Shown here: positions 442 through 39,308 of the stretch, piece after piece
How the letters are laid out: each line of letters begins with the position of its first letter
Numbering within the stretch: the first letter of the stretch is position 1
Assembly (NCBI RefSeq): GCF_002854065.1
Contig: NZ_CP024147.1
Reading direction: 5' to 3' (one strand)
DNA length: 64,000 nucleotides
Origin: Escherichia coli
GTDB lineage: Bacteria; Pseudomonadota; Gammaproteobacteria; Enterobacterales; Enterobacteriaceae
The notes under the pieces: model-generated
Databases searched by the model: none
Told to the model about the DNA's origin: nothing
Seen by the model: only the letters and a program-made list of their open reading frames with translations
Translations under genes and position numbers: made by a program

Positions 442-456
442 TTACAATTCAATCAG

Positions 457-1620
457 TTACGCCTTCTTTATATCCTCCATAATTCCAGAGTGGGACATAT
501 TTGGGACATTATCACCAAAAATGTCGTCTATTTTCCTCGCATGCTCTGTCAAATGATTAGGCGCAAGGTGAGCATACCTACGAACCATTTCTATGGACTC
601 CCATCCGCCCATTTCCTGAAGCACTGATAATGGGACGCCTGACTGAATCAGCCAGCTTGCCCAGGTGTGTCTGAGGTCATGGAAACGGAAATCTTCAATT
701 CCTGCACGACGACAAGCTGATAGCCATGATGTCTTGCTGTCGATGCGCATCTTCCTGACCGCAGGCGTTGATGTTCCATCTGCTCGCTTAGCCGCCTTGG
801 TATGTACAAACACCCATTTGTGATGCTTGCCTATTTGATCACGCAACACTTTACAGGCGGTATCGTTCAGCGCCACACCAATGGCGCGGTTTGATTTGCT
901 CTCTTCTGGATTCACCCAGGCAACTCGTCGCTGCATGTCGATTTGTTGCCATTCCAGATTTATGATGTTCGACTTTCTCAGACCAGTTGCCAGCGCAAAC
1001 TTGACGACAGATTTCAGTGGTTCGGGGCACTCATCAATAAGGCGTTTTGCTTCCTCCTTTTCCAGCCATCTGACTCGCTTGTTTCTGACCGCTGGTATCT
1101 TGATGACAGGCGCTTTTTCCAGCCACTTCCAGTCGCGTTCTGCAGCACGGAGAATGGCCTTTATCATGGCAAGATGCTTTGCCTTTGTCTGAGTTGATAC
1201 TGGCTTTGGTTCATAAACAGGCAGTTCTTTACCTTTCCTGATGGCGGCCTGAACTTTCTGTTTCCATATTTCTTTCGTCTTTCTGTTATGCATTCTGCTT
1301 ACAGCAGAGTAAATCTTTGCCTCCGAGATATCTTTAAGCCTTATACCCTCAAAATGTTCAAGCCAGAACTCAATCCGGCTTTTATCTGAATCGAGAGATT
1401 TTTTATCAGCTTTTTCCTCAAGCCATCTTAGGCAGGCCTCTTCAAAAGTGACATCAGGTAAATCCCCTAGCTTTTCTACTCGCCAGAGTTCTGCTTTTCG
1501 CTTGTCGTGCAACTCCTGAGCTTGCCGCTTGTCCTTTGTGCCAAGAGATTCCTTAATTCGTTTCCCGCCCGGGAGCGAATACGAGGCATACCATATTTCA
1601 TTTCTGCGGAAGAGTGACAT
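457..1620 (-). CDS. intD: Prophage tyrosine integrase (DLP12 IntD-like, 387 aa)
   Basis: 387-aa ORF directly adjacent to tRNA; C-terminal R..HxxR..Y catalytic region ([15 protein letters not shown]); matches remembered IntD. Confidence 0.95.
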
Positions 1621-1847
1621 TTTCTTTCCTCTGTTATGCCATCACCCGCGCTCACCTGGACAGTATGCAGCGGAGACTGAAGCGCCGCAATGCAGGCTTG
1701 CCGTGTTGTGAGGTAAGGAGATTTTGGCTTGGTTGGATCTTTACGTGTTGCCTGTAGGCGGCCTGTTCGTATCCAGTTGGTGGCGGTTGGTCTGGATATC
1801 TTAAGAAACTGACAGGCCTCATCGAGTGTGAGGCTGTATGATTCCAT
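1476..1847 (-). CDS. Excisionase-like HTH protein (Xis/AlpA type); possibly a pseudogene because it overlaps int by about 145 nt
   Basis: ORF upstream of int with HTH motif [26 protein letters not shown]; start taken at internal Met MESYSL. Confidence 0.45.
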
Positions 1848-2097
1848 GGTTACCTCTGCTTTTTGAACGCATGTCACGTAACTTCTTAATGTGTTCTGCC
1901 GTTTCGATCTCTTCTGCTATCCGATCTGCATCAGCTTTATTCACAGGTTCAAAGTCATGATTAAAGCGGAACATGCTGGCGATACATGTTCTGCCTTTTC
2001 GGATGTAGTGAACTTTGTTGTGGGTAGAACGCAGGATTTTGCAGGGAGTGCCGTGGTGGTCGACGTACCAGGTGTTAGGAAAAATGATTCTGAACAT
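1819..2097 (-). CDS. Hypothetical prophage early-region protein (92 aa)
   Basis: ORF only; position between xis and the TraR-like gene; no recognised motif. Confidence 0.3.
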   Translation of the reverse strand: MFRIIFPNTWYVDHHGTPCKILRSTHNKVHYIRKGRTCIASMFRFNHDFEPVNKADADRIAEEIETAEHIKKLRDMRSKSRGNHGIIQPHTR

Positions 2098-2144
2098 TTT
2101 TACACCTCAGTTGGACGATGTTGAAATTTGCTGCTTTGAGGCCA

Positions 2145-2363
2145 TCACAGTCCCCATTGTTTGTTCTTAAGTTCGATCTCCTCCTGGCAACTCGCACAAG
2201 TCCGACAACCCTGAACAGCCAGGCGTCTTCGCTCATCTATCGGATCGCCACACTCACAACAATGAGTTGCGGATACAGTCTGGTAGTTCAGACGACGCAT
2301 TTTTATTGCTGTATTGCGCTGTAATTCTTCGATTTCTGATGCTGAATCAATGATGTCTGCCAT
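2145..2363 (-). CDS. TraR/DksA-family C4 zinc-finger protein (phage TraR-like, 72 aa)
   Basis: 72 aa with CxxC-(17)-CxxC (CCECGDPIDERRRLAVQGCRTCASCQ), typical of the TraR/DksA C-terminal zinc finger. Confidence 0.6.
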   Translation of the reverse strand: MADIIDSASEIEELQRNTAIKMRRLNYQTVSATHCCECGDPIDERRRLAVQGCRTCASCQEEIELKNKQWGL

Positions 2364-2590
2364 CTTTCATTAATCCCTGAATTGTTGGTTAATACGCTTG
2401 AGGGTAAATGCGAATAATAAAAAAGGAGCCTGTAGCTCCCTGATGATTTTGCTTTTCATGTTCACCGTTCCTTAAAGACGCCGTTCAACATGCCGATCGC
2501 CATGCTTAAATGAGTCGGTGTGAATCCCATCAGCGTTACCGTTTCGCGGTGCTTCTTTAGTATCTGGCTGAAAGAGGGGGTTATTAAGGC

Positions 2591-2953
2591 GTGAATACCT
2601 ACAGCATCACATTACCCTGGCCTCCGAGCAATAATCGCTATTACCGCCATAATCGCGGGCGCACGCACGTCAGCGCAGAGGGGCAGGCATACCGCGATAA
2701 CGTCGCCCGAATCATTAAAAACGCAATGCTGGATATCGGCCTGGCTATGCCTGTGAAAATCCGCATTGAGTGCCACATGCCGGATCGCCGTCGCCGTGAC
2801 CTGGATAATCTGCAAAAAGCCGCTTTTGACGCACTCACTAAAGCAGGTTTCTGGCTGGATGATGCTCAGGTCGTTGATTACCGCGTTGTGAAGATGCCTG
2901 TTACCAAAGGTGGGAGGCTGGAACTGACCATCACCGAAATGGGGAATGAATGA
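2591..2953 (+). CDS. rusA: Holliday-junction resolvase RusA (120 aa)
   Basis: 120 aa [18 protein letters not shown]... matching remembered RusA. Confidence 0.93.
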
Positions 2954-3090
2954 TGTTTGAGTTTTATATGGCAGAACTTCTTCGCCACCGCTGGGGGCAT
3001 CTGCGCTTATATCGTTTCCCCGGTTCTGTTTTGACCGATTACCGAATACTGAAGAGTTACGCCAAAACCCTGACAGGAGCAGGAGTATGA
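2950..3090 (+). CDS. ylcG: Small prophage protein YlcG (46 aa)
   Basis: ATG overlapping rusA stop; translates [46 protein letters not shown]; below the ORF-track size cutoff. Confidence 0.6.
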
Positions 3091-3175
3091 AGTCAGAGAT
3101 AACAATCAACTAATACTGTTTTGTTGATTTTTGCTTGTAATTGGCGTTTTGGTCTGATTTTTGTGGAGTAAGTTG

Positions 3176-3559
3176 ATGCGTGATATTCAGATGGTTCTTG
3201 AGCGTTGGGGAGCGTGGGCGGCTAATAATCATGAAGATGTGACCTGGTCGTCCATTGCCGCCGGTTTTAAGGGATTAATTCCTTCAAAAGTAAAATCTCG
3301 CCCGCAATGTTGTGACGATGACGCGATGATCATTTGCGGGTGCATGGCCCGTCTGAAAAAGAACAACAGCGATTTGCACGATTTATTAGTAGATTATTAT
3401 ATAGTCGGTATGACATTCATGTCACTGGCAGGTAAGCATTGCTGCTCTGATGGTTATATCGGGAAAAGGTTACAAAAGGCTGAGGGCATAATTGAAGGGA
3501 TGTTAATGGCATTAGATATCCGGTTAGAGATGGATATCGTTGTTAATAACTCTAATTAA
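3176..3559 (+). CDS. quuD: Late-gene antiterminator Q (QuuD-like, 127 aa)
   Basis: [24 protein letters not shown]... matches remembered DLP12 QuuD; start taken at second Met of the track ORF. Confidence 0.85.
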
Positions 3560-3584
3560 TACGCCAATTATTTACTAAAAGTTA

Positions 3585-3622
3585 TTAAAAATGGGGCGTT
3601 GAAGCGCCCCCAAAAATAAAGG
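3585..3622. terminator. Bidirectional rho-independent terminator between quuD and nmpC
   Basis: GC hairpin GGGGCG-ttgaa-GCGCCCC flanked by A-run upstream and A/T-run downstream. Confidence 0.5.
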
Positions 3623-3747
3623 GTAATATATAACAGAAGGTTTGTATAGTTAGAAGCAAGGTTGTGCTTCTAAAGGAAGTGGCTTGAGGGAGCCACTTAT
3701 ATGTTGGGGAGGCAAAGCCTCCCACAACATATCTTTTAGTAATCAAA

Positions 3748-4830
3748 TTAGAACTGGTAAACCATACCTACAGCAACGATATCATCGGTAGCAACGCCAG
3801 ATGCTTTCGTGAAATCGCTCTTATCAATCAGGTTGATTTTGTAGTCAACAAAAGTGGACATATTTTTGTTGAAGTAATAGGTTGCACCTACATCAACATA
3901 TTCAACCAGGTCCTGATCACCCCAAACACCCAAGTCTTTTCCTTTAGAATGCAGGTAAGCAACGGATGGACGCAGGCCGAAGTCGAACTGATATTGTGCA
4001 ACAGCTTCGAAGTTTTGTGCTTTGTTGGCAATATGGTTATTACCAAAAACAGTCATGTTCTGGGTTTCAGAATAGGTGGTGGCCAGATAGATGTTGTTCG
4101 CATCATATTTCAGACCAGCTGCCCATACTTCAGCATTTTGACCAGAAGCATTCAGACCGTTGTTACCGTAGATAACCTGATTATTAGTGCGATCAGATTT
4201 AGCATAGGTTGCACCCACGCCGAATCCTTCATACTCATAAGTAGTTGAGAAACCGAAACCATCGCCATTAGCTTCAGTTACTTCATTTCGGTCATTTTTG
4301 CCCTGATACTGAGCTGCAAAGTTCAGGCCATCAACCAGACCAAAGAAGTCGTTGTTACGATAAGTTGCAACACCTGTGGTGCGACCAGTCATGAACACAT
4401 CTGTTTGGGTCCAGGTATCGCCACCGAATTCTGGCAGAACGTCAGTCCACGCACCGATGTCGTATGCTACACCGTAGTTACGGCCGTAATCGATTGAGCC
4501 GTAGTCACCGAATTTCAGGCCAGCGAAGGCAAGACGGGTTTTATCTTTGGAGGAACCTTGAGATTCAGCGCGGTTGCCTTTGAATTCATATTCCCACTGA
4601 CCGAAACCAGTCAGTTGATCGTTGATTTGGGTTTCACCTTTGAAGCCAAGACGGGCATAAGTAGTATCACCATCATCTGCATCATTAGAGGAGAAGTAGT
4701 GCTTAGCATTAACTTTCCCGTACAGATCCAGCTTGTTACTGTCTTTATTATAAATTTCAGCTGCCTGAGCAGACATCGCCATCAGTACTGATGCAGCTAC
4801 AGCAGAAATTGCCACTGTTAATTTTTTCAT
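3748..4830 (-). CDS. nmpC: Outer-membrane general porin NmpC/OmpD-like, apparently intact (360 aa)
   Basis: Signal peptide [23 protein letters not shown], porin beta-barrel sequence ending in C-terminal F; uninterrupted here (K-12 copy carries IS5). Confidence 0.9.
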
Positions 4831-5258
4831 CGTGAGCCCTTTTTTTTGAACTATTATTAAAAAATGATGTCACTGCGCGATAAATATTCATCTAATCAAT
4901 GTGATTATTTCAAGATGTAAGTTTTGGTTTCTCGTTTAATTTGTGAAGTAGATCTCTATTTTTATCTGAACTTTTTTCTATCGAATCCTATTCATGGCTC
5001 TTGGCTGAATAAAAATAAATCTATTAGCCAATTTATATTAATGGCTGTTATTTATAAGTGCTCTATAATTTGAAGGTTCAATTTAAATTGGCTAAAAATA
5101 ACGCTGGAAATTATTTGTTGGTTATTTGTTGAGATTTTCTTATGTATTTGTAGTGGTGTTTTCAATACTCGGTAGCATTCTCGCAAATATCATTTAGTGG
5201 TTTACGTACGTAAAAAATTGGTTATGCTGTTAAGAGTGGTTACTTCGTTACACAGCTT

Positions 5259-5291
5259 AAACCCGCCGTCGAGCGGGTTTTTCCATTTTTT
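5259..5291 (+). terminator. tR'-like terminator in the late leader upstream of the lysis genes (Q antitermination target region)
   Basis: Hairpin AACCCGC-cgtcga-GCGGGTT followed by TTTTCCATTTTTT. Confidence 0.45.
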
Positions 5292-5403
5292 GAGTCTCGA
5301 TATTAGCTGATAACCCAATACCTGAGTTATTCACTGACTCCGAGTCTGTTACGTTTCGTAGTATTCCCTCAATTTACACCCGCTTTGTCTGCGAGGTGGG
5401 GTT

Positions 5404-5619
5404 ATGAAATCCATGGATAAGTTAACAACGGGTGTCGCCTATGGCACCTCAGCAGGTAGTGCCGGGTACTGGTTTTTACAGCTGCTCGATAAAGTCACGC
5501 CCTCACAGTGGGCAGCAATAGGTGTGCTGGGTAGCCTGGTATTTGGCCTGCTGACGTACCTGACAAACCTTTATTTCAAGATTAAAGAAGATAAGCGCAA
5601 GGCTGCGAGAGGTGAATAA
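5404..5619 (+). CDS. essD: Phage holin (EssD-like, 71 aa)
   Basis: 71 aa with hydrophobic TM segments and charged C-terminus; first gene of lysis cassette. Confidence 0.9.
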
Positions 5620-6116
5620 TGCCTCCATCATTACGAAAAGCTGTTGCTGCTGCTATTGGTGGCGGGGCTATTGCTATAGCATCTGTGTTAATCACTGGCC
5701 CAAGTGGTAACGATGGTCTGGAAGGTGTGAGACATAATCCTTACAAAGACATAGTTGGTGTATGGACTGTATGTTACGGGCATACAGGAAAAGACATCAT
5801 TCCCGGTAAAACGTATACCGAAGCAGAGTGCAAAGCCCTCCTGAATAAAGACCTTGCCACTGTCGCCAGACAAATTAACCGGTACATCAAAGTCGATATA
5901 CCGGAAACAACGCGCGGCGCTCTTTACTCGTTCGTCTACAACGTGGGTGCTGGCAATTTCAGAACATCGACGCTTCTTCGCAAAATAAACCAGGGTGATA
6001 TTAAAGGCGCATGTGATCAGCTACGGCGCTGGACATACGCTGGCGGTAATCAATGGAAAGGACTGATGACTCGCCGTGAGATTGAGCGTGAAGTCTGTTT
6101 GTGGGGGAAACAATGA
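5619..6116 (+). CDS. rrrD: SAR endolysin / lysozyme (RrrD-like, 165 aa)
   Basis: N-terminal signal-anchor-release segment [18 protein letters not shown] followed by lysozyme domain; ATGA overlap with holin stop. Confidence 0.9.
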
Positions 6117-6571
6117 GCAGAGTAACCGCGATTATCTCCGCTCTGGTTATCTGCATCATCGTCTGCCTGTCATTGGCTGTTAATCATTACCGTGATAACG
6201 CAATCGCCTACAAAGAGCAGCGCGATAACAAGGCCAGTGAACTGGAGAAGGCGAACGCCACCATCGCTGACATGCGGAAGCGTCAACGTGATGTAGCAGA
6301 ACTCGACGCAAGATACACAAAGGAGCTTGCTGATGCTAACGCGACTATCGAAAGTCTCCGTGCTGATGTTTCTGCTGGGCGTAAGCGCCTGCAAGTCGCC
6401 GCCACCTGTGCAAAGTCAACGACCGGAGCCAGCGGCATGGGCGATGGAGAAAGCCCAGGACTTACAGCAGATGCTGAACTCAATTATTACCGTCTCCGAA
6501 GTGGAATCGACAAGATAACCGCGCAGGTTAACTACCTGCAGGAATACATCAGGACGCAATGCCTGAAATAA
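6113..6571 (+). CDS. rzpD: Spanin inner-membrane subunit Rz (i-spanin)
   Basis: N-terminal TM helix then coiled-coil-rich periplasmic domain; ATGA overlap with endolysin; diverges from K-12 RzpD. Confidence 0.85.
6327..6518 (+). CDS. rzoD: Spanin outer-membrane lipoprotein Rz1 (o-spanin), embedded in the +1 frame of Rz
   Basis: Lipobox LLGVSAC followed by proline-rich segment [13 protein letters not shown]; wholly inside Rz in another frame; exact start uncertain. Confidence 0.7.
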
Positions 6572-6602
6572 TTTTTTTGCAAATCACAAAGTCCATTTAA
6601 TG

Positions 6603-6628
6603 AGCCTCGCGATGCGGGGCTTTTTTTA
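6603..6628 (+). terminator. Rho-independent terminator after the lysis cassette
   Basis: Hairpin CCTCGC-gat-GCGGGG followed by CTTTTTTT. Confidence 0.5.
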
Positions 6629-6866
6629 CATCTGAATTTCACAGCGCATCTCACGCGCATATTACATCACCCGAGCCTTTCAGAAAGTTGAGCCTGAGAA
6701 CTGCCGTATATGGTGGCGACCATCTCGGGGCGGCTTTTCTGTGAGACAGGCTCACTTTCTAAAAGGTAAAGACGCTATGAACCAATTAGAAGAAAAGCTT
6801 CAAAGAATGATTTCCTTATACAAGGAAGATAACTGCCAAAAAGTTCCTTAAAACATCGCAGAGTTA

Positions 6867-7265
6867 ATGGAATTGGCAAGTGAATTTTCTGGCATGCTTA
6901 AGTCGTCAGGTGTTCGGTCAGCGTTCTTTGTTGAAATGCTGATGCACGGCGGACTTATGGCAACAATGAGACGTGTAATGGAAGACCAGAGAAAAGAACC
7001 TCCTCAGGTATACGTTTTGTCATCGAAGAAAACTGGGCTAACCAAAATTGGGTATTCATCCAACATTCCACAACGCATCAAATCGCTTGGCAACTCTGGA
7101 CCAGACTGCTTGAAGCTTGAGTGCCTGATCCCTGGTGGAAGAGAAACTGAAAACATGCTTCATCGCAAATTTGCCGCAAAGAGAAAGCACGGTGAATGGT
7201 TCGCCCTGTCCAAGGATGACATTGAGGGATTGAAATCTGTAGCGATTACTTCTGATGGCTATTAA
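6867..7265 (+). CDS. T5orf172 / GIY-YIG-like domain protein (132 aa), prophage accessory gene
   Basis: Motif block VYVLSSKKTGLTKIGYSSNIPQRIKSL...ENMLHRKFAAKRKHGEWFAL resembles the T5orf172 (MUG113) fold; N-terminal 45 aa unassigned. Confidence 0.5.
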   Translation: MELASEFSGMLKSSGVRSAFFVEMLMHGGLMATMRRVMEDQRKEPPQVYVLSSKKTGLTKIGYSSNIPQRIKSLGNSGPDCLKLECLIPGGRETENMLHRKFAAKRKHGEWFALSKDDIEGLKSVAITSDGY

Positions 7266-7943
7266 TGCTTGTTTAGAGCAATTTTCATAACAACTCTTCA
7301 TTACAAAGCCCATCTACTGGTGGGCTTGATAATGAAACCGTGATTTACATCCCCACAATCCGGGTATGTAAAAGATAGTTCAGGCGAGAACGGATTTAAC
7401 TAAATCTGTGCGCCACCAGTTAACGGCAGTACCACGAAACAACCCAAGCCAGTAAGTGGGGAAATAACACCGGCAGCCACTGAAAGATGAACCTCCTGCC
7501 TTATGGCAAAAAAGATTCTTTGTGGTGGCGGACTGATGGAAAGACATCCTAATTTCAGCCAAACATTGAAGGAGTTGTTATGTCAGCAGAAGGTTTCAAT
7601 AACCCATCAAAATTCCGGGATGAGTGGGATAGCAGCGTAAAGAGTAAGTGATGCCATCACAAAAGCCATTCCCTACAGAGTGGCTTTGATAATGGCTTAT
7701 ACCCTACACGGGATAACTTAACTGATATCCTTTTTAAAGGATAAAGGTATTCAAGCCTGACACATCATGCGCTGTATCGTCGCCGTATTCCCGTATTAAC
7801 AGAGACCGTAGCCCGACGGGGAACTCCTTCTGCGCGAGTGTGCGGGAATAATCAAAAACGATGCACACCGGGGTTACCGGGTACACATATTTCATCATGC
7901 CAGCGAGTCCGGTTCTGGCACGGAAGAAACCGGACGTTATGAT

Positions 7944-8354
7944 TTAGTGCGGAAATATTTGTGTAGTGTTCTGAATGTTCTCAGTAAAGAGTAATGAATT
8001 ATCAAAGGTATAGTAATACCTTTTGTTTTCGTGGATATTTGTAATCCATCTGAAAACCCCTGCTGTAGCAAGATTTTTCCTGTATTCGTAAAATGATAAC
8101 TCTCCTGATTTGAATCCTTTTAATGTGGTTTCTATAAGGCATTTATTTTTTGAAAATCTTACATTTACAACCTTACCCTGTCCTTTTATTAAAACCGTAT
8201 TATCGTTTTCAAGAACAAGATGAATATTCTCTGTGGCTAAATAGTAAATGTAATGTGAGACATTGTGACGTTTTAGTTCAGAATAAAACCAGTGATAGTT
8301 TAAATTATTTCGCACTTTATCGAATATTTGTTTAAAAATGGCAACCTGAGCCAT
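7944..8354 (-). CDS. Uncharacterised AT-rich prophage protein (136 aa from second Met; possibly YbcV-like)
   Basis: ORF in low-GC segment; length and position relative to the cos/nu1 region resemble DLP12 ybcV; no motif recognised. Confidence 0.45.
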
Positions 8355-8411
8355 TGTAGTACCTTCCATGTGATATGAAGGTACCTAGTCTGCACGATTA
8401 TCTAAATTGCT

Positions 8412-8645
8412 TCAATCTGGTCTGACCTGCTTTCTGAGCAATTCAGTAATGTCACTCTTTTCTTTGTTTGCTTCAGGCGAAACTCTTTTTTCTGAGCACA
8501 GTCTTCGGCGGCAGGCTTCAATGACCCAGGCTGAGAAATTCCCGGACCCTTTTTGATCAAGAGCGATGTTAATTTGTTCAATCATTTGGTTAGGAAAGCG
8601 GATGTTGCGGGTTGTTGTTCTGCGGGTTCTGTTCTTCGTTGACAT
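8412..8645 (-). CDS. Small ribbon-helix-helix-type DNA-binding protein (YlcI/DUF3950-like, 77 aa)
   Basis: Basic N-terminus then NIRFPNQMIEQINIALDQKGSGNFSAWVIEACRRRL, consistent with RHH/Arc-like fold; adjacent to cos as ylcI is in DLP12. Confidence 0.5.
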   Translation of the reverse strand: MSTKNRTRRTTTRNIRFPNQMIEQINIALDQKGSGNFSAWVIEACRRRLCSEKRVSPEANKEKSDITELLRKQVRPD

Positions 8646-8689
8646 GAGGTTGTCCCGTATTCAGTGTCGCTGATTTGTATTGTCTGAAG

Positions 8690-9000
8690 TTGTTTTTACG
8701 TTAAGTTGATGCAGATCAATTAATATGATACCTGCGTCATAATTGATTATTTGACGTGGTTTGATGGCGTAGATGCACGTTGTGACATGCAGATGATAAT
8801 TATTATCATTTTGCGGGTCCTTTCCGGCGATCCGACAGGTTACGGGGCGGCGACCTCGCGGGTTTTCGCTATTTATGAAAATTTTCCGGTTTAAGGCGTT
8901 TCCGTTCTTCTTCGTCGTAACTTAATGTTTTTATTTAAAATACCCCCTGAAAAGAAAGGAAACGACAGGTGCTGAAAACGAACTTTTGGGCCTTTGTCGT
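8690..9000 (+). other. Lambda-type cohesive-end site (cosQ - cosN - cosB); cosN 12-nt overhang sequence GGGCGGCGACCT at about 8845-8856
   Basis: Near-identity to the joined right and left ends of phage lambda as I recall them (…CCGACAGGTTACG|GGGCGGCGACCTCGCGGGTTTTCGCTATTTATGAAAATTTTCCGGTTTAAGGCGTTTCCGTTCTTCTTCGTC…) directly upstream of nu1. Confidence 0.8.
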
Positions 9001-9033
9001 TTCCTTTCTCTGTTTTTGGCCGTGGAATGAACA

Positions 9034-18819: not shown

Positions 18820-21792
18820 TTACCAGTGCACTCCAATGGTGAGAAACGCGTTGTTGCGCTCTCCGTTACGTTGATTAATCGCCTTAAAGGTATGTTGATA
18901 CTCGACGCCGAGACTGACTTTGTGCGGCCAGGCGTCGTAGTGCGTCTCGCCGGTCCAAATATTCCAGCGGACCCCGACACCGCCAAGCTGCGCGCCCTGA
19001 GTGCCTTTATCACGATAGCCGTTGTCCTGAACGTGAGCGTAAGGCTCAATAGTCTGTCCGTTAGCTACCTTCTGATGCCAGCTGACGCGATAATCTGCCG
19101 TCCACGCCTGAATATCCTGGCGGATATATTGCGCCGCATCGAGGTACAGGTTTTGGGCAAACCAGCCTGAACCGTTCGGGTGCCATTCGTCGCTGTATTT
19201 GCCGCCATTAAAGAATGAGGCGCTGGCGCGCAGCATGGTATCGGATGCGCCATTTTGCCCGTTCAGCGGCAACTGCTGTTCGACGGCGAGGAAAAAGATC
19301 TGATCGCTCAGCGGCTTCCAGCGTAGACCGGTGCCGGACATCGGATTTTTCACCGGCATCATCACCCCGTTTTCTCCGGTATCGGCAAAGACGCGGCTAT
19401 AAACTGAGAGCAGGTCGCCTTCCAGCAGCATATTGCGTCCGATGCGGTACTCGGCTTCCAGTTGCCCGTAGCTACGATAGCTTTTCCCTGGCGCTGCGCC
19501 GCCAACATTATTGTTAGCGGTACTCATTGCCCCGGAACGCAAGCCGATGGAAGAATCGAAACTGAACGTCCAGCGGCGACCGACCTCCTCATGCAGACGG
19601 CGGAAATTGAAGCGTTGCTGATTTTGCTCTGGGGTCAGTGGGGTTATCAGCGCCTGATTATCAATGTCATCAATCACCAGCCGGGCGTAGTACTGCGTCG
19701 CAGGCATGTCATCCAGACGCTGGTTCACATAGGCCAGTTGTCGGATCAGTGCCGGATCGTCCGGTAGCCCTTTATGCGCCTGTTCGAGCATTTCCCGCGA
19801 CTGTGCGATATCACCGCTATCCCACAAGGCGTAACCAAGCGCTGCCTGGGTGTTGCTATTATTCGGTTCCAGTTCCAGCGCGGCGCGCAAATCACTCACC
19901 GCGGCCGGGACATTATGACGTTGGCGATAAATTGTCGCCCGCGCAACGTAAGCGTTGGCAGAAGGCGCAATATTGATTGAGCGCGTGAGATCGTTCAGTG
20001 CGAGTTCCGGCTGACCAGGAATGTAACGTTGCGCATGCAGCCACCAGTAGAGCGCATTGCTTCCCAGTCCACGTTTTTCTGCCTGTTGTAGCCAGCGATC
20101 GCGAGCCGCACCATTTCCTGCCGCCTGGGCGGTATTGGCAGCAGCAAGCAGATCCTCATTGCTCATGTCGTGAAGACTGATTTTCTGCCAGGCCGCCAGT
20201 GCGGTGGCGTAGTCCTCAACCTGATACGCCTGATAGGCTACCGCACGATGTTGCCAGGCGTTCGGTTGTCGTTGTTCGGCCTGAAGCCATGCATACAACG
20301 CCACACCGGGTAGCGTGTCCCGATAACACTTTGCCAGACGGTTCCAGGCGGCAGCATCGTAGGAAGGCGACATATCGCCCAGCAAGCGAACTATTGCCGG
20401 GCAATTATCTGCAATACCCGGCAACTGACTTTGCCACTGACGTTGCTCCGCCAGCGGTAAGGGTTTCGATAAAATCGCCACCTTCGCTGGAGTTGCCAGG
20501 TAAGGATGACTTTCCAGAAGAGACGCCAGTCGCGCCATTAAAGTCTGGCTGACACGCGCATCGCCCTGGAAAGGATAGCGTTGCAGCAATAAATCGGCAG
20601 CTTCGCGTGACTGCTCGCTCTGTATCAGTTGCCAGGTTAGTTGATCCAGGCGGGTAAGATTTGCCGGTTCTTGCTGATACAGCAAGCGTGCCAGACGCAG
20701 AGCTTCAGCCTTGTTACGGGTCGCCACGCTGACAGCATAACGCTCCTCAAGCATTTCATTGGCGGGGAGGGTGGCGAGCAGTTTTTGCGCTGCGTCGTAC
20801 TGACCTTCTTTTAACAGCACCGGTAGCGTCGCGCCAACAACATACTGGCGGTTATCGGCAAACTGCACCGTATAATTCGCCAATGCCTGAACGGGGTTGG
20901 CGCTGTATTTAGATAACAGATAGAGCCAACTTTTCTCTTGTGCGTCCGTGGTAAACAGCGGCTTATTTTCAATGAGATAATGCTGGAGGCGTGCTTTTTC
21001 GCCACGATAAGCCAGCGCGGTCGCGTAAGTAATATATGACTGAGGATCGGTGAAGATCCCCTGTGATTGCAGTGCCAGGATCCGATCGTCCAGCTGCCCG
21101 GCAAGAAGCACGTCAAACCACTGACGGCGTTCTGCCGCGCTTAATGTGTTCTGCTGGCGTGCTTCATTGTATAGCGTATCTGCCTGGGACCATTGTTTCA
21201 GGTAGATTGCCCGTTGCAGCAGATCGGTTCGCAGCGTTTTTCCTTCCGGCGATGCAGCAAACGTCGCATCGTTCAGTTGCGCTCTGGCGACAGGTAACTG
21301 TGCCAGCCGCAGGGCATTCTGCCCGACTTCACTGCGACAACGCAGGGTCGGCGCAGCATCGCACGCTTTTTGCTGGGCAAGCAGTTCTTCAACTGTCGTA
21401 ACGCTTTTCACTTCAACTGGAATAGCCGCCAGACTGCGCTCAAGTCGGGCATCTCCTGGGTGACGTTTCAGTTGATCCTCAAGCAACAGCCGCGCCCGGT
21501 CATCATGACCAAAATGGCGATAGGCTTCCGCAAGGTATAAAGTCAGCGGAATATTATCCGGCACCTGCTGGTGTATATATTCATATTCGCGGATGGCGGT
21601 TGCTTCGTCGTTATTTTTCTGTGCCTTCAGCGCCTTATCGAGACGGGGATAAATAACAAAATGGCGATAATCGCTCAGCCCCAGCTCTTCTGCGCTGGTG
21701 CCGATATTGTCTGCGAGTGCGCTGGTACTCAATAAAGACGTCAGCAGTAAACCAGACCATCCGATGACGCGATTAAGGTTATTCTCCTTCAT
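18820..21792 (-). CDS. nfrA: Bacteriophage N4 adsorption protein A (outer-membrane, TPR-containing; 990 aa)
   Basis: 990 aa from MKENNLNRVIGWSGLLLTSLLSTSALA; the track ORF has a 7-codon upstream extension. Confidence 0.9.
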   Translation of the reverse strand: MKENNLNRVIGWSGLLLTSLLSTSALADNIGTSAEELGLSDYRHFVIYPRLDKALKAQKNNDEATAIREYEYIHQQVPDNIPLTLYLAEAYRHFGHDDRARLLLEDQLKRHPGDARLERSLAAIPVEVKSVTTVEELLAQQKACDAAPTLRCRSEVGQNALRLAQLPVARAQLNDATFAASPEGKTLRTDLLQRAIYLKQWSQADTLYNEARQQNTLSAAERRQWFDVLLAGQLDDRILALQSQGIFTDPQSYITYATALAYRGEKARLQHYLIENKPLFTTDAQEKSWLYLLSKYSANPVQALANYTVQFADNRQYVVGATLPVLLKEGQYDAAQKLLATLPANEMLEERYAVSVATRNKAEALRLARLLYQQEPANLTRLDQLTWQLIQSEQSREAADLLLQRYPFQGDARVSQTLMARLASLLESHPYLATPAKVAILSKPLPLAEQRQWQSQLPGIADNCPAIVRLLGDMSPSYDAAAWNRLAKCYRDTLPGVALYAWLQAEQRQPNAWQHRAVAYQAYQVEDYATALAAWQKISLHDMSNEDLLAAANTAQAAGNGAARDRWLQQAEKRGLGSNALYWWLHAQRYIPGQPELALNDLTRSINIAPSANAYVARATIYRQRHNVPAAVSDLRAALELEPNNSNTQAALGYALWDSGDIAQSREMLEQAHKGLPDDPALIRQLAYVNQRLDDMPATQYYARLVIDDIDNQALITPLTPEQNQQRFNFRRLHEEVGRRWTFSFDSSIGLRSGAMSTANNNVGGAAPGKSYRSYGQLEAEYRIGRNMLLEGDLLSVYSRVFADTGENGVMMPVKNPMSGTGLRWKPLSDQIFFLAVEQQLPLNGQNGASDTMLRASASFFNGGKYSDEWHPNGSGWFAQNLYLDAAQYIRQDIQAWTADYRVSWHQKVANGQTIEPYAHVQDNGYRDKGTQGAQLGGVGVRWNIWTGETHYDAWPHKVSLGVEYQHTFKAINQRNGERNNAFLTIGVHW

Positions 21793-24016
21793 TTTCGGAC
21801 TCCAGTTGCGCAACCTGTTCTGTGTTTAAACCTGCTTTGAGTAATAGTGATTGCATCGAAACTTGTAATTCGCGTTGAATTGTCAGGACGCGATCCAACG
21901 TTTCCTGGCTGATAACGCCTTCGGTGACCAAAAACTTGCCGAGCGGCAGAGAACTGCGTTCATGGCGCAATAACAACACGTTAATTGCTGAACGATTAAT
22001 ATGACCGAGCGTGGTCAGTATTTCGGCGAACAGGAACTGATGCGGCACATATTGCCGCCAGATTTCACCGGCCTGCTGTTCCGTGAGCCACTGATGCTGA
22101 ACCGCATTGTACAACATTGCCCGCGGATCGTGACCGCGTCGGCGTGCATACCAGTGACGTAACCCCGTGACAATTTATCCCCGCAGAACAATGACGTAAC
22201 GCACTTTGCGTCCGACTTTACGCGTCAGGGCCGCCAGCGAAACCGGGTCAATACCATCTTCACTGCCGACAATTAACACATCATTTTCCAGACGCAGCGG
22301 CAGCACTGCATAATGCAGCGCCACGGAGGCTGGCATTTCGGCAATCAGCGAGGACGGGATCTGCCAGGCATCGATGGATTCCCACGCCACGCCGTTTTGC
22401 TCTGCCAACGCCTGTGCCAGTTGCTCGGCGCTAATCAGCCCCTGCATCAGCATTGAACCGCCCAGGCGTAGACCTTCGACGCGATTACGCAGTGCTGTAT
22501 CGAGTTGTTCTTCAGTGATGACCTGATTTTCCAGCAGAATTTGACCTAACGGGCGCAACGAGCGGGTATCGCCAGTGACGCTGGGGAAGTCATGCGTTGT
22601 TTTATCCCACGCCACGCGACGTGGATCGCCGTGTTGAAGTACCTGTTTTAACGCGCGCCAGTTGGCCATGAAGTTAATCAGGTTGCCCCAGAAAAGACGC
22701 AGGACGGAAAGCAGCCCCTGCGTCAGGCCGTAGTAGCCAGTAACGAAAATCACCCGCTGCACGATGCGGTTAACCATCAAACCAAAGTTTAGCCACAGCA
22801 GGGTCATTAACCATGCGCTGCCGCTGAAAATAGAAAGGAAATGCTAGGCATCGGGCCACAAACTTTCATACGCCAGCAACAGCAAAAGCTGGATCATCAC
22901 CAGCATCGCGAGGAAGCTGACAAAGTTACTGATTGCCCCTTTGCGGTCGCGCCAGAGAAAGTAGTTCAGCGTCAGGCTGGAGGTCCATTTATGGGTTTTA
23001 AAACCCTGGAAAACAATGCCGATGATCCAGCGGGATTTTTGTCGAACCGCAGTCGAAAAGGTATCGGGGAAATATTCGCGCACGCAGATCATGTTTGACG
23101 TCCGTGCGTGCTGTAAAAATTTACGCTGCTCGCGTTCTTTGGCTTCGTCCACCACCGGAAAACGGACAAAAATTTCCGTCATACCTTTTTCTTTCAGGCG
23201 GAAGCCAATGTCGTAATCTTCAGTAAGACTCTGCACGTCGAAAGCAATACCGTCACCGTCAGCTAACAGTGCGGTCACGGCGCGGCGGCTGAAACAGGTG
23301 CCGACGCCTGCGCTGGGCACTTGTCCGGCGAGGGCTTCACGCACCGGAACATCTTTGCCATGCAGTTCTGAAAACTCATCAATGTAAGTCATGCTGGTGA
23401 AGTGCGTCCATTCGCGTTCGAATGGGTATACCGGGATCTGAATCAGATCTTTACGCTCGACCAGATAGTTGAACAGACGCAACTCCATCGGTGAAATCAC
23501 ATCTTCGGCGTCATGCAGAATAAAACCAGCAAAAGCGAAATTGGCGCTACGCTCAAACTGGGTGATGGCGTCCAGCACGTTGTTCAGACAGTCGGCTTTG
23601 CTGGTGGGGCCAGGACGCGCGCAGACTACCTTATGCACATTCGGGAAGCGAGCGCACACTTCGTCAACATCACGCTGAGTGTCCGGGTCGTTGGGGTAGG
23701 TGCCAACAAAGATATGATAGTTTTCGTAGTCGAGCGTGGTCGCCGCCAGCTCGGCCATATTGCCGATGACGCCCGTTTCATTCCACGCCGGAACCATAAT
23801 CGCTAACGGTTTTTCATCTGGTTTATACAGTTCGCGGTAACTCATTCGCGGGTAGCGGCGATAAACACTCAACTTGCGTTTAATGCGGCGTACCCAGTAG
23901 ACGACATCAATAAAAAAATCGTCCAGCCCGCTGATGAACATGATGACCGCTAACGTTATCGCGATTACTTTTAAGCCGTAGAGCCAGGTAGCAAAAACAT
24001 CAAGAAGCCAGTCCAC
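21779..24016 (-). pseudogene. nfrB: Bacteriophage N4 adsorption protein B (inner-membrane glycosyltransferase-like), split by two in-frame stop codons
   Basis: Three co-frame ORFs (390, 210, 112 aa) separated by single stops at 22844-22846 (TAG) and 22175-22177 (TAA); together they span exactly 2238 nt, the length of a 745-aa NfrB. Confidence 0.8.
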
Positions 24017-26437: not shown

Positions 26438-27820
26438 ATGTCTCCTTGTAAACTTCTGCCATTTTGTGTGGCCCTTGCGCTAACCGGTTGTTCACTGGCA
26501 CCGGATTATCAGCGTCCGGCAATGCCCGTTCCTCAGCAGTTCTCACTCAGCCAGAACGGCTTGGTTAACGCAGCAGATAACTATCAGAACGCGGGCTGGC
26601 GCACCTTTTTTGTTGATAATCAGGTGAAGACGCTGATTAGCGAGGCGCTGGAGAATAACCGGGATTTGCGCATGGCGACGCTGAAAGTGCAGGAGGCACG
26701 GGCGCAATATCGTCTGACCGATGCCGACCGCTACCCACAGCTCAATGGCGAGGGCAGCGGCAGCTGGAGCGGTAATCTTAAAGGGAATACCGCCACGACA
26801 CGGGAGTTTTCGACCGGCCTTAACGCCAGCTTTGACCTCGATTTTTTCGGTCGCTTAAAGAACATGAGCGAAGCCGAGCGACAAAATTATTTAGCCACTG
26901 AGGAAGCTCAGCGCGCGGTGCATATTCTGCTGGTTTCTAATGTCGCGCAAAGCTATTTCAATCAGCAGCTGGCGTATGCGCAATTGCAAATAGCCGAAGA
27001 AACGCTGCGTAATTATCAGCAGTCATATGCGTTTGTTGAAAAACAACTGTTGACCGGTAGCAGCAATGTTCTGGCGCTGGAACAGGCTCGCGGGGTGATA
27101 GAAAGTACCCGCAGTGACATCGCTAAACGTCAGGGGGAACTGGCGCAGGCGAATAATGCATTGCAACTGTTATTGGGAAGCTACGGCAAGCTGCCGCAAG
27201 CGCAGACAGTAAACAGCGACAGCCTGCAAAGCGTTAAATTACCGGCGGGCTTGTCGTCGCAAATCTTATTGCAGCGCCCGGATATTATGGAAGCTGAACA
27301 CGCGTTAATGGCGGCTAATGCCAATATTGGGGCCGCACGCGCGGCATTTTTCCCATCTATAAGCCTGACCAGCGGAATATCAACCGCCAGCAGCGATCTG
27401 TCGTCATTATTTAACGCCAGCAGCGGGATGTGGAATTTTATTCCTAAAATTGAGATCCCCATTTTTAATGCCGGACGCAACCAGGCCAATCTGGATATCG
27501 CCGAAATTCGCCAGCAGCAGTCGGTAGTGAATTATGAACAGAAAATCCAGAACGCCTTTAAAGAAGTGGCAGATGCGCTGGCATTACGTCAAAGCCTGAA
27601 CGATCAAATCAGCGCCCAGCAGCGTTATCTGGCGTCGCTGCAAATTACTTTGCAACGGGCGCGGGCATTATATCAGCACGGCGCGGTAAGTTATCTGGAA
27701 GTGCTGGATGCCGAGCGTTCTTTATTTGCAACCCGACAAACCTTACTTGACCTGAATTATGCCCGTCAGGTCAACGAAATTTCTTTATATACCGCACTTG
27801 GTGGCGGTTGGCAGCAATAA
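26438..27820 (+). CDS. cusC: Outer-membrane factor lipoprotein CusC
   Basis: Lipobox LALTGC; OMF/TolC-like repeats. Confidence 0.95.
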   Translation: MSPCKLLPFCVALALTGCSLAPDYQRPAMPVPQQFSLSQNGLVNAADNYQNAGWRTFFVDNQVKTLISEALENNRDLRMATLKVQEARAQYRLTDADRYPQLNGEGSGSWSGNLKGNTATTREFSTGLNASFDLDFFGRLKNMSEAERQNYLATEEAQRAVHILLVSNVAQSYFNQQLAYAQLQIAEETLRNYQQSYAFVEKQLLTGSSNVLALEQARGVIESTRSDIAKRQGELAQANNALQLLLGSYGKLPQAQTVNSDSLQSVKLPAGLSSQILLQRPDIMEAEHALMAANANIGAARAAFFPSISLTSGISTASSDLSSLFNASSGMWNFIPKIEIPIFNAGRNQANLDIAEIRQQQSVVNYEQKIQNAFKEVADALALRQSLNDQISAQQRYLASLQITLQRARALYQHGAVSYLEVLDAERSLFATRQTLLDLNYARQVNEISLYTALGGGWQQ

Positions 27821-38684: not shown

Positions 38685-39034
38685 CCGTTGTGCGGGGAGT
38701 AATCCCCGCATATCCGGTTGTCAGGTCAGGATGGTAAGGCACCTGCTTTACACTTTCGCCCGCGGTCAGTGATGGCTGCGGGCGGTTTCGTTTTAAGAGC
38801 AATGATGAGTTTTGCCGACAGAAGTCCGAAACAGGATTCACTGTATAAATAAACAGCTATTTTGCTAAGGAAGGGTAAGATAACGGCGGGTGCCTGAAGC
38901 TTTCCGGTTTCAGGTTAACTCTGAGGTTTGGAAAGATGAAGCCCCAGGAGATATTTCTATCAATCCTGGGGCTGCCACTCCGAACCTGAACAACTCGGAT
39001 GGTAGTCCCTTCTTCGCATGGAGGCAATATAAAC

Positions 39035-39187
39035 ATGCTGACGAAATATGCCCTTGTGGCAGTCATAGTGCTGTGTTTGACGGTGCTGGGATTTACGCTT
39101 CTGGTCGGAGACTCGCTGTGTGAGTTCACCGTAAAGGAACGTAATATTGAGTTTAAGGCTGTTCTCGCTTACGAACCGAAGAAGTAG
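39035..39187 (+). CDS. hokE: Hok-family membrane toxin, copy 2 (50 aa; R42K relative to copy 1)
   Basis: [50 protein letters not shown]. Confidence 0.85.
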
Positions 39188-39308
39188 CCGTTGTGCGGGG
39201 AGCAATCCCCGCATATCCGGTTGTCAGGTCAGAGTGGTAAGGCACCTGCTTTACACTTTCGCCCGCAGTCAGTGATGGCTGCGGGCGAATCGTACCAGAT
39301 GTTGTCAA

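Follow-up and report, generated by a model that had tools for sequence, protein, structure and literature searches.

Organisation of the nfrB locus

The window, that is, the whole stretch of 64,000 nucleotides of Escherichia coli DNA analysed here (contig NZ_CP024147.1), carries nfrB, nfrA and ybcH in the order cusRS, nfrB, nfrA, ybcH, with nfrB lying between cusS and nfrA, as in K-12 and in the sister strain 100416, a human stool isolate. All three genes are on the minus strand, which for nfrB had not been given in the preliminary description of this DNA. The nfrB pseudogene occupies positions 21779–24016. The gene for the outer-membrane component, nfrA (18820–21792, minus strand), is intact with 990 codons; it had already been described as such, and it is indeed full length and free of internal stops. 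Third in the nfrBA-ybcH operon, ybcH (17929–18819, minus strand) is likewise intact, with 296 codons. The start of nfrA overlaps the end of nfrB by 14 nt (21779–21792), an overlap also found in K-12, which places nfrA downstream in the same operon (PMC8669469).

Translation from 24016 to 21779 gives a single frame of 745 codons followed by the terminal TAA and interrupted by two nonsense codons. In a base-by-base alignment with nfrB of K-12 MG1655 (b0569), all 2238 of 2238 nucleotides were aligned without a gap, the two genes being of equal length and 98.9% identical. The 25 differences comprise 22 synonymous changes, the substitution E580V and the two stops. The first of these is an amber at codon 391 (22844–22846, minus strand), where TAG stands in place of the ancestral TGG, and the second is an ochre at codon 614 (22175–22177, minus strand), where TAA stands in place of CAA. 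Since K-12 has TGG and CAA at these codons, both stops are G:C-to-A:T transitions. The preliminary description had recognised the gene as nfrB in three segments collinear with NfrB, had placed an amber at codon 391 and an ochre at codon 614, and had inferred TGG and CAA as their ancestors; the K-12 alignment bears out each of these points, and exactly these two internal stops were found.

The first open reading frame of 390 aa (codons 1–390; 22847–24016, or 22844–24016 with its stop, minus strand) holds the family-2 glycosyltransferase domain. The middle one, of 210 aa (Met404–Gly613; 22178–22807, or 22175–22807 with its stop, minus strand), covers the membrane linker and most of the c-di-GMP-binding region, which has been assigned to residues 414–745 of NfrB (PMC8669469). 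The third is a C-terminal remnant of 112 aa (Met634–Glu745; 21782–22117, or 21779–22117 with its stop, minus strand). The statement that these three frames are separated by single stop codons holds for the reading frame, but not for the open reading frames as listed, the second and third of which start at the first in-frame ATG past each stop (Met404 and Met634).

A Pfam search with the repaired translation matched PF13632 (residues 165–382), PF13641 (70–332) and PF05157, MshEN (542–628), and the separate fragments match the same families. The glycosyltransferase matches cover residues 70–382, and the stop at codon 391 lies just past this domain. Because the frame is broken by the amber TAG and the ochre TAA, the copy in the window is classified as a pseudogene of the NfrB family and not as a functional member. 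Apart from the stops, its protein sequence is identical to the intact allele WP_000383936, and the nearest intact allele differs by 7–8 synonymous changes and by no missense change, stops excluded. The inactivation of nfrB is therefore young. The earlier observation that the gene shows no frameshift or other decay also stands, as the K-12 alignment contains no indels and the comparison with the nearest intact allele no missense change.

The amber at codon 391 and Dcm methylation

The ancestral context of codon 391, GCC-TGG, contains the Dcm site CCTGG, and on the plus strand the change reads CCAGG to CTAGG. The altered G is paired with the inner C of CCWGG, which is the position methylated by Dcm. 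Judged by this context, W391amber is the change that would be expected from deamination of 5-methylcytosine at a Dcm site, a process that is documented together with Vsr repair (PMC2715241 and references there). The preliminary description, which had suggested repeated selection, contained no mention of this hotspot; for one of the two stops, it is the better-supported cause.

By its composition, nfrB is unusually amber-prone, as it has seven CCWGG sites and 5 of the 14 possible hotspot transitions give TAG. Only three of its 20 Trp codons stand in the CCTGG context, and these are precisely the three Trp codons that have changed in strain 100416. Recurrence of the same change was found in public genomes: W391TAG occurs on at least four nfrB allele backgrounds that are 19–43 substitutions apart from one another, and W551TAG on at least five. 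Among 3988 matched complete-genome records, four carry W391TAG (one of them a duplicate), among them a K-12-type and a 2%-divergent allele, while 3982 other genomes have TGG at this codon.

The four truncation products tested among those predicted from Dcm-hotspot changes are all present publicly, namely 1–336 (199 contigs), 1–390 (359), 1–550 (155 + 130) and 1–703 (at least 1000). The products of Trp-to-stop changes outside Dcm sites were also present in ten of ten cases tested, on 21–151 contigs each; such contig counts reflect clonal sampling, which confounds a comparison of frequency between hotspot and non-Dcm stops. Given that all ten non-Dcm stops exist as well, the hotspot is a contributor and not the sole cause, and loss of nfrB is pervasive in public genomes. 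The window and strain 100416 are separated by 20 recent SNPs, two of which fall at Dcm-methylated positions; such positions make up about 0.5% of the sequence, and the enrichment, roughly 20-fold, is based on very small numbers. In a CCWGG census of the window against K-12, Dcm sites were not enriched for changes, so that a comparison at this deep divergence cannot serve to estimate the strength of the hotspot.

Codon 614 and the nested series of stops

The ochre at codon 614 lies in the context GGGGA-CAA-ATT, which is not a Dcm site, and it is specific to the lineage among complete genomes, being found in only one of 4626 besides the window. Two further codons are TGG in the window and stops in its relatives. 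Codon 551 (22364–22366, minus strand) shares with codon 391 the context CGATGCC-TGG-CA, and it reads TAG in sub-clades of the window lineage (L024, L026 and strain 100416) as well as on at least four other backgrounds. Codon 11 (23984–23986, minus strand), also in a CCTGG context, reads TGA in L026 and strain 100416, which form the most derived sub-clade, and this W11opal is not a Dcm-hotspot change. The stops are thus nested within the lineage, with two in the window, three in L024 and four in L026 and strain 100416. Double and triple stop alleles were found on other backgrounds too (L017, L025 and L027–L029).

No single-stop intermediate that would put the two stops in order was found on the exact nfrB background of the window. 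The product 1–613, which would mark Q614ochre by itself on the V580 background, was absent from the protein collection, whereas a V580 fragment 404–745, indicating an upstream stop only, does exist, on retrieved contigs that belong to other backgrounds 11–19 differences away. A series moving upstream from codon 614 through 551 and 391 to 11, with a recurrent W391amber, was considered and set aside, as the W551 and Q614 intermediate was not found. Among the matches listed, the product 1–550 is followed by an intact 561–745 fragment in eight of eight contexts.

Distribution of the double-stop allele

A match to nfrB with at least 80% coverage was obtained in 5031 of 5426 complete genomes. The 210-aa fragment, which requires both stops and whose exact sequence marks the double-stop allele, occurs on 88 public contigs. 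This allele was recovered from many independent isolates of different sources, including short-read Logan and ENA assemblies; among independent assemblies, L013 is 100% identical to the window and L012 has a difference at one synonymous position. The double-stop form of nfrB is inherited within a naturally occurring E. coli lineage. Damage has reached nfrA as well, both in members of this lineage and in other lineages in which nfrB is dead, with an IS1 insertion in L013, T717P in strain 100416 and a split nfrA in L017, L021, L033, L035 and L043.

Predicted phenotype and comparison with known systems

[quoted passage not shown] From its gene content, the strain is expected to have no c-di-GMP-activated NfrB glycosyltransferase, to lack the N4 glycan receptor and to resist those N4-type phages that depend on this receptor. 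The intact nfrA and ybcH are predicted to be without function and possibly under-expressed through polarity. In practice, the annotation of this genome should list nfrB as a pseudogene, and the predicted loss of the receptor bears on host range and on the choice of N4-like (Schitoviridae) phages for cocktails.

The K-12 protein (b0569) is a c-di-GMP-activated family-2 glycosyltransferase which produces the N4 glycan receptor, and the window copy shares its position, its length and its layout of glycosyltransferase and MshEN domains. Unlike K-12 NfrB, it bears W391amber, Q614ochre and E580V, and the full-length enzyme cannot be encoded. Some E. coli strains, E. coli B among them, are on record as carrying nfrB (and dgcJ) alleles with premature stops, IS insertions or deletions (Sellner et al., 2021; PMC8669472). 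As in the window, those lesions inactivate nfrB in strains that were not engineered, and they too would be expected to abolish sensitivity to N4. Sellner and others ascribe the lesions to laboratory fitness costs, whereas the allele of the window is found in many wild isolates; neither the codon sites, nor the recurrence, nor the nested series of two, three and four stops appears in that paper (PMC8669472). A literature search for nfrB pseudogenes returned no paper on natural nonsense alleles of nfrB, the sole relevant statement being the one in PMC8669472. As premature stops in nfrB have already been published, the stops described here are genuine but, for the most part, an unremarkable instance of phage-receptor gene loss. 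Other natural losses of phage receptors, as with ompC, fhuA and the LPS genes, likewise proceed by point mutations or IS insertions that disable a dispensable pathway for a surface structure exploited by phages; at nfrB, by contrast, selection by phage is a presumption.

Amber hotspots at the 5-methylcytosine of CCAGG sites in lacI were reportedly described by Coulondre and Miller in 1978, and work on Vsr is said to have been published by Lieb in 1991. By their sequence context, W391amber and W551amber would belong to the class of the lacI hotspots, being transitions at the methylated C of CCWGG that create TAG and recur. In contrast to the lacI reporter hotspots, they occur in natural populations and in a phage-receptor gene, and Q614ochre and W11opal fall outside the class. 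The gene can be taken as a clean natural example of the way in which Dcm methylation biases the loss-of-function alleles that arise first, and arise again, in E. coli in the wild.

Origin of the stops

The account that we favour, with a probability of about 0.8, is that nfrB was inactivated recently in a natural E. coli lineage and has been passed on vertically as a pseudogene. At codon 391, the amber would be the change that spontaneous deamination of the Dcm-methylated C in CCTGG is expected to produce, one that appears to have been repeated independently in several unrelated E. coli lineages, and the ochre at codon 614 would be an ordinary transition from C to T that only this lineage has. 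Whichever stop came first would have abolished the enzyme, and it may have been favoured by pressure from N4-like phages or because the polysaccharide system was costly. The remaining one of the two, together with the third and fourth stops of the sub-clades, would then have accumulated in a gene freed from constraint, the more readily because an unusually high share of the Dcm sites in nfrB give an amber. A dead gene may, on this account, gather further in-frame stops quickly and before other signs of decay appear.

Unconstrained accumulation can be compared with a neutral hotspot model, built on the mutation spectrum of the lineage itself with a hotspot factor of 10–50, under which 7–12% of neutral nfrB mutations are nonsense. 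Three of the four secondary nfrB mutations are nonsense (P of about 0.001–0.007), as are both of the two on the branch of strain 100416 (P of about 0.005–0.016). The neutral model therefore leaves a modest excess of nonsense changes, though the numbers behind it are small.

Repeated positive selection for extra stops could account for this excess, and we consider it unlikely overall. A first stop might have left a leaky or harmful remnant, such as a read-through product, a reinitiated C-terminal c-di-GMP-binding fragment, an unregulated glycosyltransferase fragment or continued expression of nfrA and ybcH, and later nonsense mutations, perhaps by Rho-dependent polarity, would silence the operon more fully. 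Polarity is made plausible by the 14-nt overlap within the operon (PMC8669469), the lineage has four nonsense against zero missense changes in nfrB, W11opal lies upstream of all the other stops, and multi-stop alleles recur on the other backgrounds named above. On the most parsimonious tree, however, W551amber arose later than W391amber and lies downstream of it, so that it cannot alter the protein or the polarity. The intermediates of a strictly upstream-moving series are absent (the V580 product 1–613 is missing, and the listed contexts of product 1–550 retain 561–745), and several of the other multi-stop alleles came from a search that required a second stop, which makes them biased examples. 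A fuller version, to which we give the same low standing, would portray nfrB as a hotspot-primed target for phage-receptor loss: in-frame CC-TGG and C-CAG-G would supply ambers at an elevated rate, and selection would then repeatedly add stops that shut off the remnants together with nfrA and ybcH, giving the nested alleles of two, three and four stops and the double and triple ambers of other backgrounds. Were the nonsense excess truly the product of selection, then either truncated NfrB or an NfrA/YbcH export system left without its partner would seem to be costly to the cell.

The favoured account, an unconstrained young pseudogene, has also been weighed against a functional nfrB, in which the stops are decoded or tolerated and the protein acts through read-through or as split glycosyltransferase and MshEN fragments. 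The perfectly kept frame with no missense change and the restart codons past each stop would suit such a protein, and in-frame stops with apparent conservation in bacteria have been argued to reflect read-through (PMC7918605). The absence of missense changes is nevertheless explained by the youth of the allele. Sub-clades keep adding stops of all three kinds, and the damage to nfrA in relatives also argues against a functional nfrB. The stop at codon 391 lies upstream of the last membrane helices, and with it the whole c-di-GMP domain, which is required for activity (PMC8669469), is lost. A working split or read-through enzyme is consequently very improbable.

Equally improbable is a laboratory-mutagenised or nonsense-suppressor strain, which the preliminary description had raised and in which G:C-to-A:T mutagenesis would have produced the stops incidentally or a suppressor tRNA would make them tolerable. 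Both stops are indeed G:C-to-A:T transitions, and this class makes up five of the seven substitutions on the window's own branch. Nonetheless, no other nonsense codon was found in the approximately 45 aligned genes of the window besides nfrB, and since the split from its closest relative the branch has acquired only those seven substitutions in about 61 kb. Three of these are intergenic, three synonymous and one missense, and two of the seven are transversions, a selection-filtered natural pattern that speaks against mutagenesis, as does the sharing of the double-stop allele by many wild isolates. Regarding suppression, the only tRNA gene in the window is argU, tRNA-Arg(UCU), and the glnV/X/U/W cluster of the sister genome 100416 has the wild-type anticodons CTG and TTG; no tRNA with an anticodon for UAG or UAA was found in either place. 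Amber, ochre and opal codons together in the sister genome would moreover be beyond any single suppressor. Within the window, and for the suppressor idea within these tRNAs, the mutagenised or suppressor background is largely refuted. The case cautions against taking several stops in a gene with no frameshift and no missense change as a sign of a mutagenised strain, of a suppressor or of programmed read-through.

In nanopore-only assemblies, consensus errors are known to occur at Dcm-methylated motifs, and a systematic base-calling error at such motifs would fit the CCTGG context of codon 391 and of codons 11 and 551 in strain 100416. This artefact is the least credible of the explanations: codon 614 lies in no Dcm motif, K-12 and the window disagree at only 13 of 158 CCWGG sites (in a census that took in 158–166 window sites), as expected at 2.1% divergence, and outside nfrB the comparison with strain 100416 shows zero Dcm sites changed on its side and two on that of the window, while TGG is read at codon 391 in the 3982 other genomes and the same double-stop allele comes from many independent assemblies, short-read ones included.

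The nfrB allele and what its stops remove

In the window, nfrB lies on the minus strand, with a GTG start at 24016 and a TAA end at 21779-21781. Translated, 21779-24016 yields 745 codons, interrupted by two internal stops: TAG at codon 391 (22844-22846, minus strand), where K-12 has TGG, and TAA at codon 614 (22175-22177, minus strand), where K-12 has CAA. The resulting pieces of 390, 210 and 112 aa, as given in the preliminary description, are present in the mechanical ORF list. A base-by-base alignment to nfrB of K-12 MG1655 (b0569) was gapless and contained 25 differences, namely 22 synonymous changes, one missense change (E580V) and the two stops. Both stop positions are sense codons in K-12; therefore, the ancestral codons and the G:C-to-A:T direction given in the preliminary description were right. 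E580V is common to intact nfrB alleles of other strains, and the nearest intact allele (protein WP_000383936) has zero missense differences from this lineage. Downstream, nfrA, previously claimed to be intact, and ybcH are full length. Every test run, except that for intactness, identifies the gene as the orthologue of nfrB from K-12; it is therefore a pseudogene of that family.

NfrB is a c-di-GMP-activated glycosyltransferase (GT) of the inner membrane, and the polysaccharide that it makes and exports together with NfrA and YbcH is the initial receptor of phage N4. Infection depends on the GT active site as well as on c-di-GMP binding, residues 414-745 being the soluble c-di-GMP-binding part, and the genes form one operon with a 14-nt overlap between nfrB and nfrA (PMC8669469, PMC8669472). 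Pfam searches on the repaired translation identified a family-2 glycosyltransferase domain (residues 70-382) and MshEN (542-628), and the NfrB fragments annotated in public assemblies matched those families too. The amber at codon 391 (W391amber) ends the protein directly past the GT domain, with loss of the entire regulatory domain, while the ochre at codon 614 (Q614ochre) falls within that domain. Judging from the published point-mutant data, each stop alone should abolish function.

A young, naturally inherited pseudogene

The closest complete genome is that of strain 100416, isolated from human stool in the Gambia; across ~61 kb, 20 substitutions and one 4-bp indel separate it from the window. 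This indel is a CTTT at 17837-17840, within a short CTTT/CTTTC repeat between envY and ybcH. Both nfrB stops are also found in 100416, where NCBI annotates a pseudogene with internal stops, and 88 contigs in the public protein collection carry the exact 210-aa product that requires both stops. Among the retrieved assemblies of the same lineage, L013 is 100% identical to the window in nfrB and L012 is identical except for one base. The nfrB present here is a real, young and naturally inherited pseudogene. General sequencing error at Dcm motifs and a gross Dcm/Vsr defect were both excluded by a census of CCWGG sites, of which 13 of the 158 in K-12 are changed in the window, matching the 2.1% divergence; between the window and 100416, zero Dcm sites outside nfrB are changed on the 100416 side.

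The preliminary description was confirmed in its observation and borne out in part in its interpretation. It had proposed a mutagenised or a suppressor-carrying background, and neither found support. Nonsense codons occur in nfrB only, among ~45 window genes aligned to K-12. When changes are polarised against K-12, the branch of the window holds seven substitutions (three intergenic, three synonymous and one missense; five G:C-to-A:T and two G:C-to-T:A), a normal, selection-filtered pattern. No suppressor tRNA was found in the window, where argU is the sole tRNA gene, and the gln tRNA cluster of 100416, the location of supE and supB, has wild-type anticodons. Across the window and this cluster there is no evidence of mutagenesis or suppression.

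A nested series of stops at and beyond Dcm hotspots

Within nfrB, the window and 100416 differ by exactly two bases, each of which creates a further stop in 100416: W11 (TGG to TGA) and W551 (TGG to TAG). Two stops are present in the window, L012 and L013, three in L024 (codons 391, 551 and 614; an intermediate from public contigs) and four in L026, as in 100416; therefore, the lineage shows a nested series of two, three and four nonsense codons. The sole further nfrB change across these sequences is one third-position substitution in L012.

The ancestral context of codon 391, GCC-TGG, contains CCTGG, a Dcm site, and the W391 G-to-A change is the complement of a C-to-T at the inner, methylated cytosine (plus strand: CCAGG to CTAGG). 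Deamination of 5-methylcytosine makes such positions hotspots, which Vsr repair offsets only in part (PMC2715241 and the work of Lieb cited in it). W391TAG was found in at least four allele backgrounds, 19-43 substitutions apart pairwise: in CFSAN061772 it is the sole base differing from K-12 in a K-12-type nfrB, and in KK19-02 it lies on a 2%-divergent allele. W391amber is thus a recurrent Dcm-hotspot amber, of the classical kind reportedly described by Coulondre and Miller.

The seven CCWGG sites of nfrB allow 14 hotspot transitions, of which five give TAG (W11, Q337, W391, W551 and Q704), seven are synonymous and two are missense, an unusual exposure to amber-generating changes. Only 3/20 Trp codons have the CCTGG context, and the same three are turned to stops in 100416. 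W551TAG occurs in at least five allele backgrounds. The predicted hotspot-amber truncation products are all present in public data, with contig counts confounded by clonal sampling: 1-336 on 199 contigs, 1-390 on 359, 1-550 on 155 (and a variant of it on 130 more) and 1-703 (P0018; Q704amber, at a Dcm site, with loss of the last 42 residues) on at least 1000. The last product comes from at least one large E. coli clone. Two of the 20 recent window/100416 substitutions are at methylated positions, which make up ~0.5% of sites: W551amber and, on the window's side, a synonymous substitution in cusC. The latter (C-to-T at 26561, Leu42, in a Dcm site) is the one further hotspot-type mutation of recent date in the window.

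Codons 391 and 551, the two amber-prone Trp codons, lie in the same 12-nt context, CGATGCC-TGG-CA (22842-22852 and 22362-22372, minus strand), and W391amber+W551amber doubles occur in this lineage and also in K-12-type alleles (L025, L027, L028 and L029). Context-dependent mutability, recombination or chance may account for this.

Loss of nfrB as such is already known, and the Dcm amber hotspot is textbook knowledge. No description was found in the literature of nfrB-specific recurrent stop sites, of the large proportion of nfrB Dcm sites that can give rise to ambers, or of a nested multi-stop nfrB series in a wild lineage.

Limits of the hotspot and the neutral model

Q614ochre (GGGGA-CAA-ATT) is not a hotspot change, nor is the W11 opal, which is at the outer motif position. 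Moreover, stops were found in public genomes at 10/10 non-Dcm Trp codons tested (21-151 contigs each, counts likewise subject to clonal sampling); loss of nfrB through nonsense mutation is therefore pervasive, with Dcm sites no more than over-represented.

A neutral model that takes its spectrum from the lineage itself (17 polarised substitutions, all in sequence other than nfrB) and multiplies the hotspot rate by 1-50 expects 5-12% nonsense per mutation. Under this model, at least three nonsense changes among four secondary mutations have P = 0.0006-0.007; for the 100416 branch, with both of its mutations nonsense, P = 0.003-0.016. The residual nonsense excess, drawn from very small numbers, is suggestive and unexplained. 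A selective model of progressive upstream truncation with recurrent W391amber was tested, and its predicted intermediates were not found: on the V580 background (alleles with E580V), the 1-613 product is absent from the public protein collection, and the V580 404-745 product is, among the contigs retrieved, on other allele backgrounds only. The 1-550 product has an intact 561-745 fragment downstream in 8/8 contexts among the matches listed. In the most parsimonious tree, W551amber arose later than, and downstream of, an existing stop, a position from which neither protein nor polarity can be affected; its placement therefore favours neutral accumulation.

Decay of the nfr operon

Damage to nfrA is frequent in lineages with a dead nfrB. 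In L013 (GCA_028883575.1), whose nfrB is exactly that of the window, an IS1 (4016-4975 in that assembly) interrupts nfrA after codon 104; 100416 carries the missense change T717P; and nfrA is split in the unrelated nfrB-dead lineages L017, L021, L033, L035 and L043. The 6-kb nfr operon received 3/12 substitutions of the 100416 branch, all three disruptive or missense. These observations fit relaxed constraint after NfrB loss, the operon as a whole decaying once nfrB is lost; in the window, nfrA and ybcH are still intact.

Other features of the window and its relatives

Near its 5' end, ompT is interrupted by an IS2 (15111-16441), absent from 100416 and K-12, whose TnpA and TnpB exceed the NCBIfam IS2 cut-offs; the K-12 ompT alignment begins at nt 24 only. 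The strain therefore probably lacks the OmpT outer-membrane protease. A DLP12-type cryptic prophage (~450-13000) adjoins argU (tRNA-Arg UCU, 365-441) and contains intD, rusA, quuD, essD and a lysis cassette; it is rearranged and partly divergent relative to K-12 DLP12, the lysis and ybcV parts being 83-92% identical. Within this remnant, upstream of appY, lies an IS1 (InsA/InsB ORFs, ~11852-12621) that 100416 lacks at the same position.

The hokE-entD spacer (624 bp, 38685-39308) has neither the IS186 of K-12 nor the IS421-family element of 100416, and exceeds a simple empty site by ~500 bp, which include a 95%-identical repeat of hokE-adjacent sequence. The cusC product (26438-27820) has 460 aa, as in 100416; owing to a different 3' end, that of K-12 has 457 aa. 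Outside the window, the annotation of djlB in 100416 (L039, 27650-29077) includes an internal stop.
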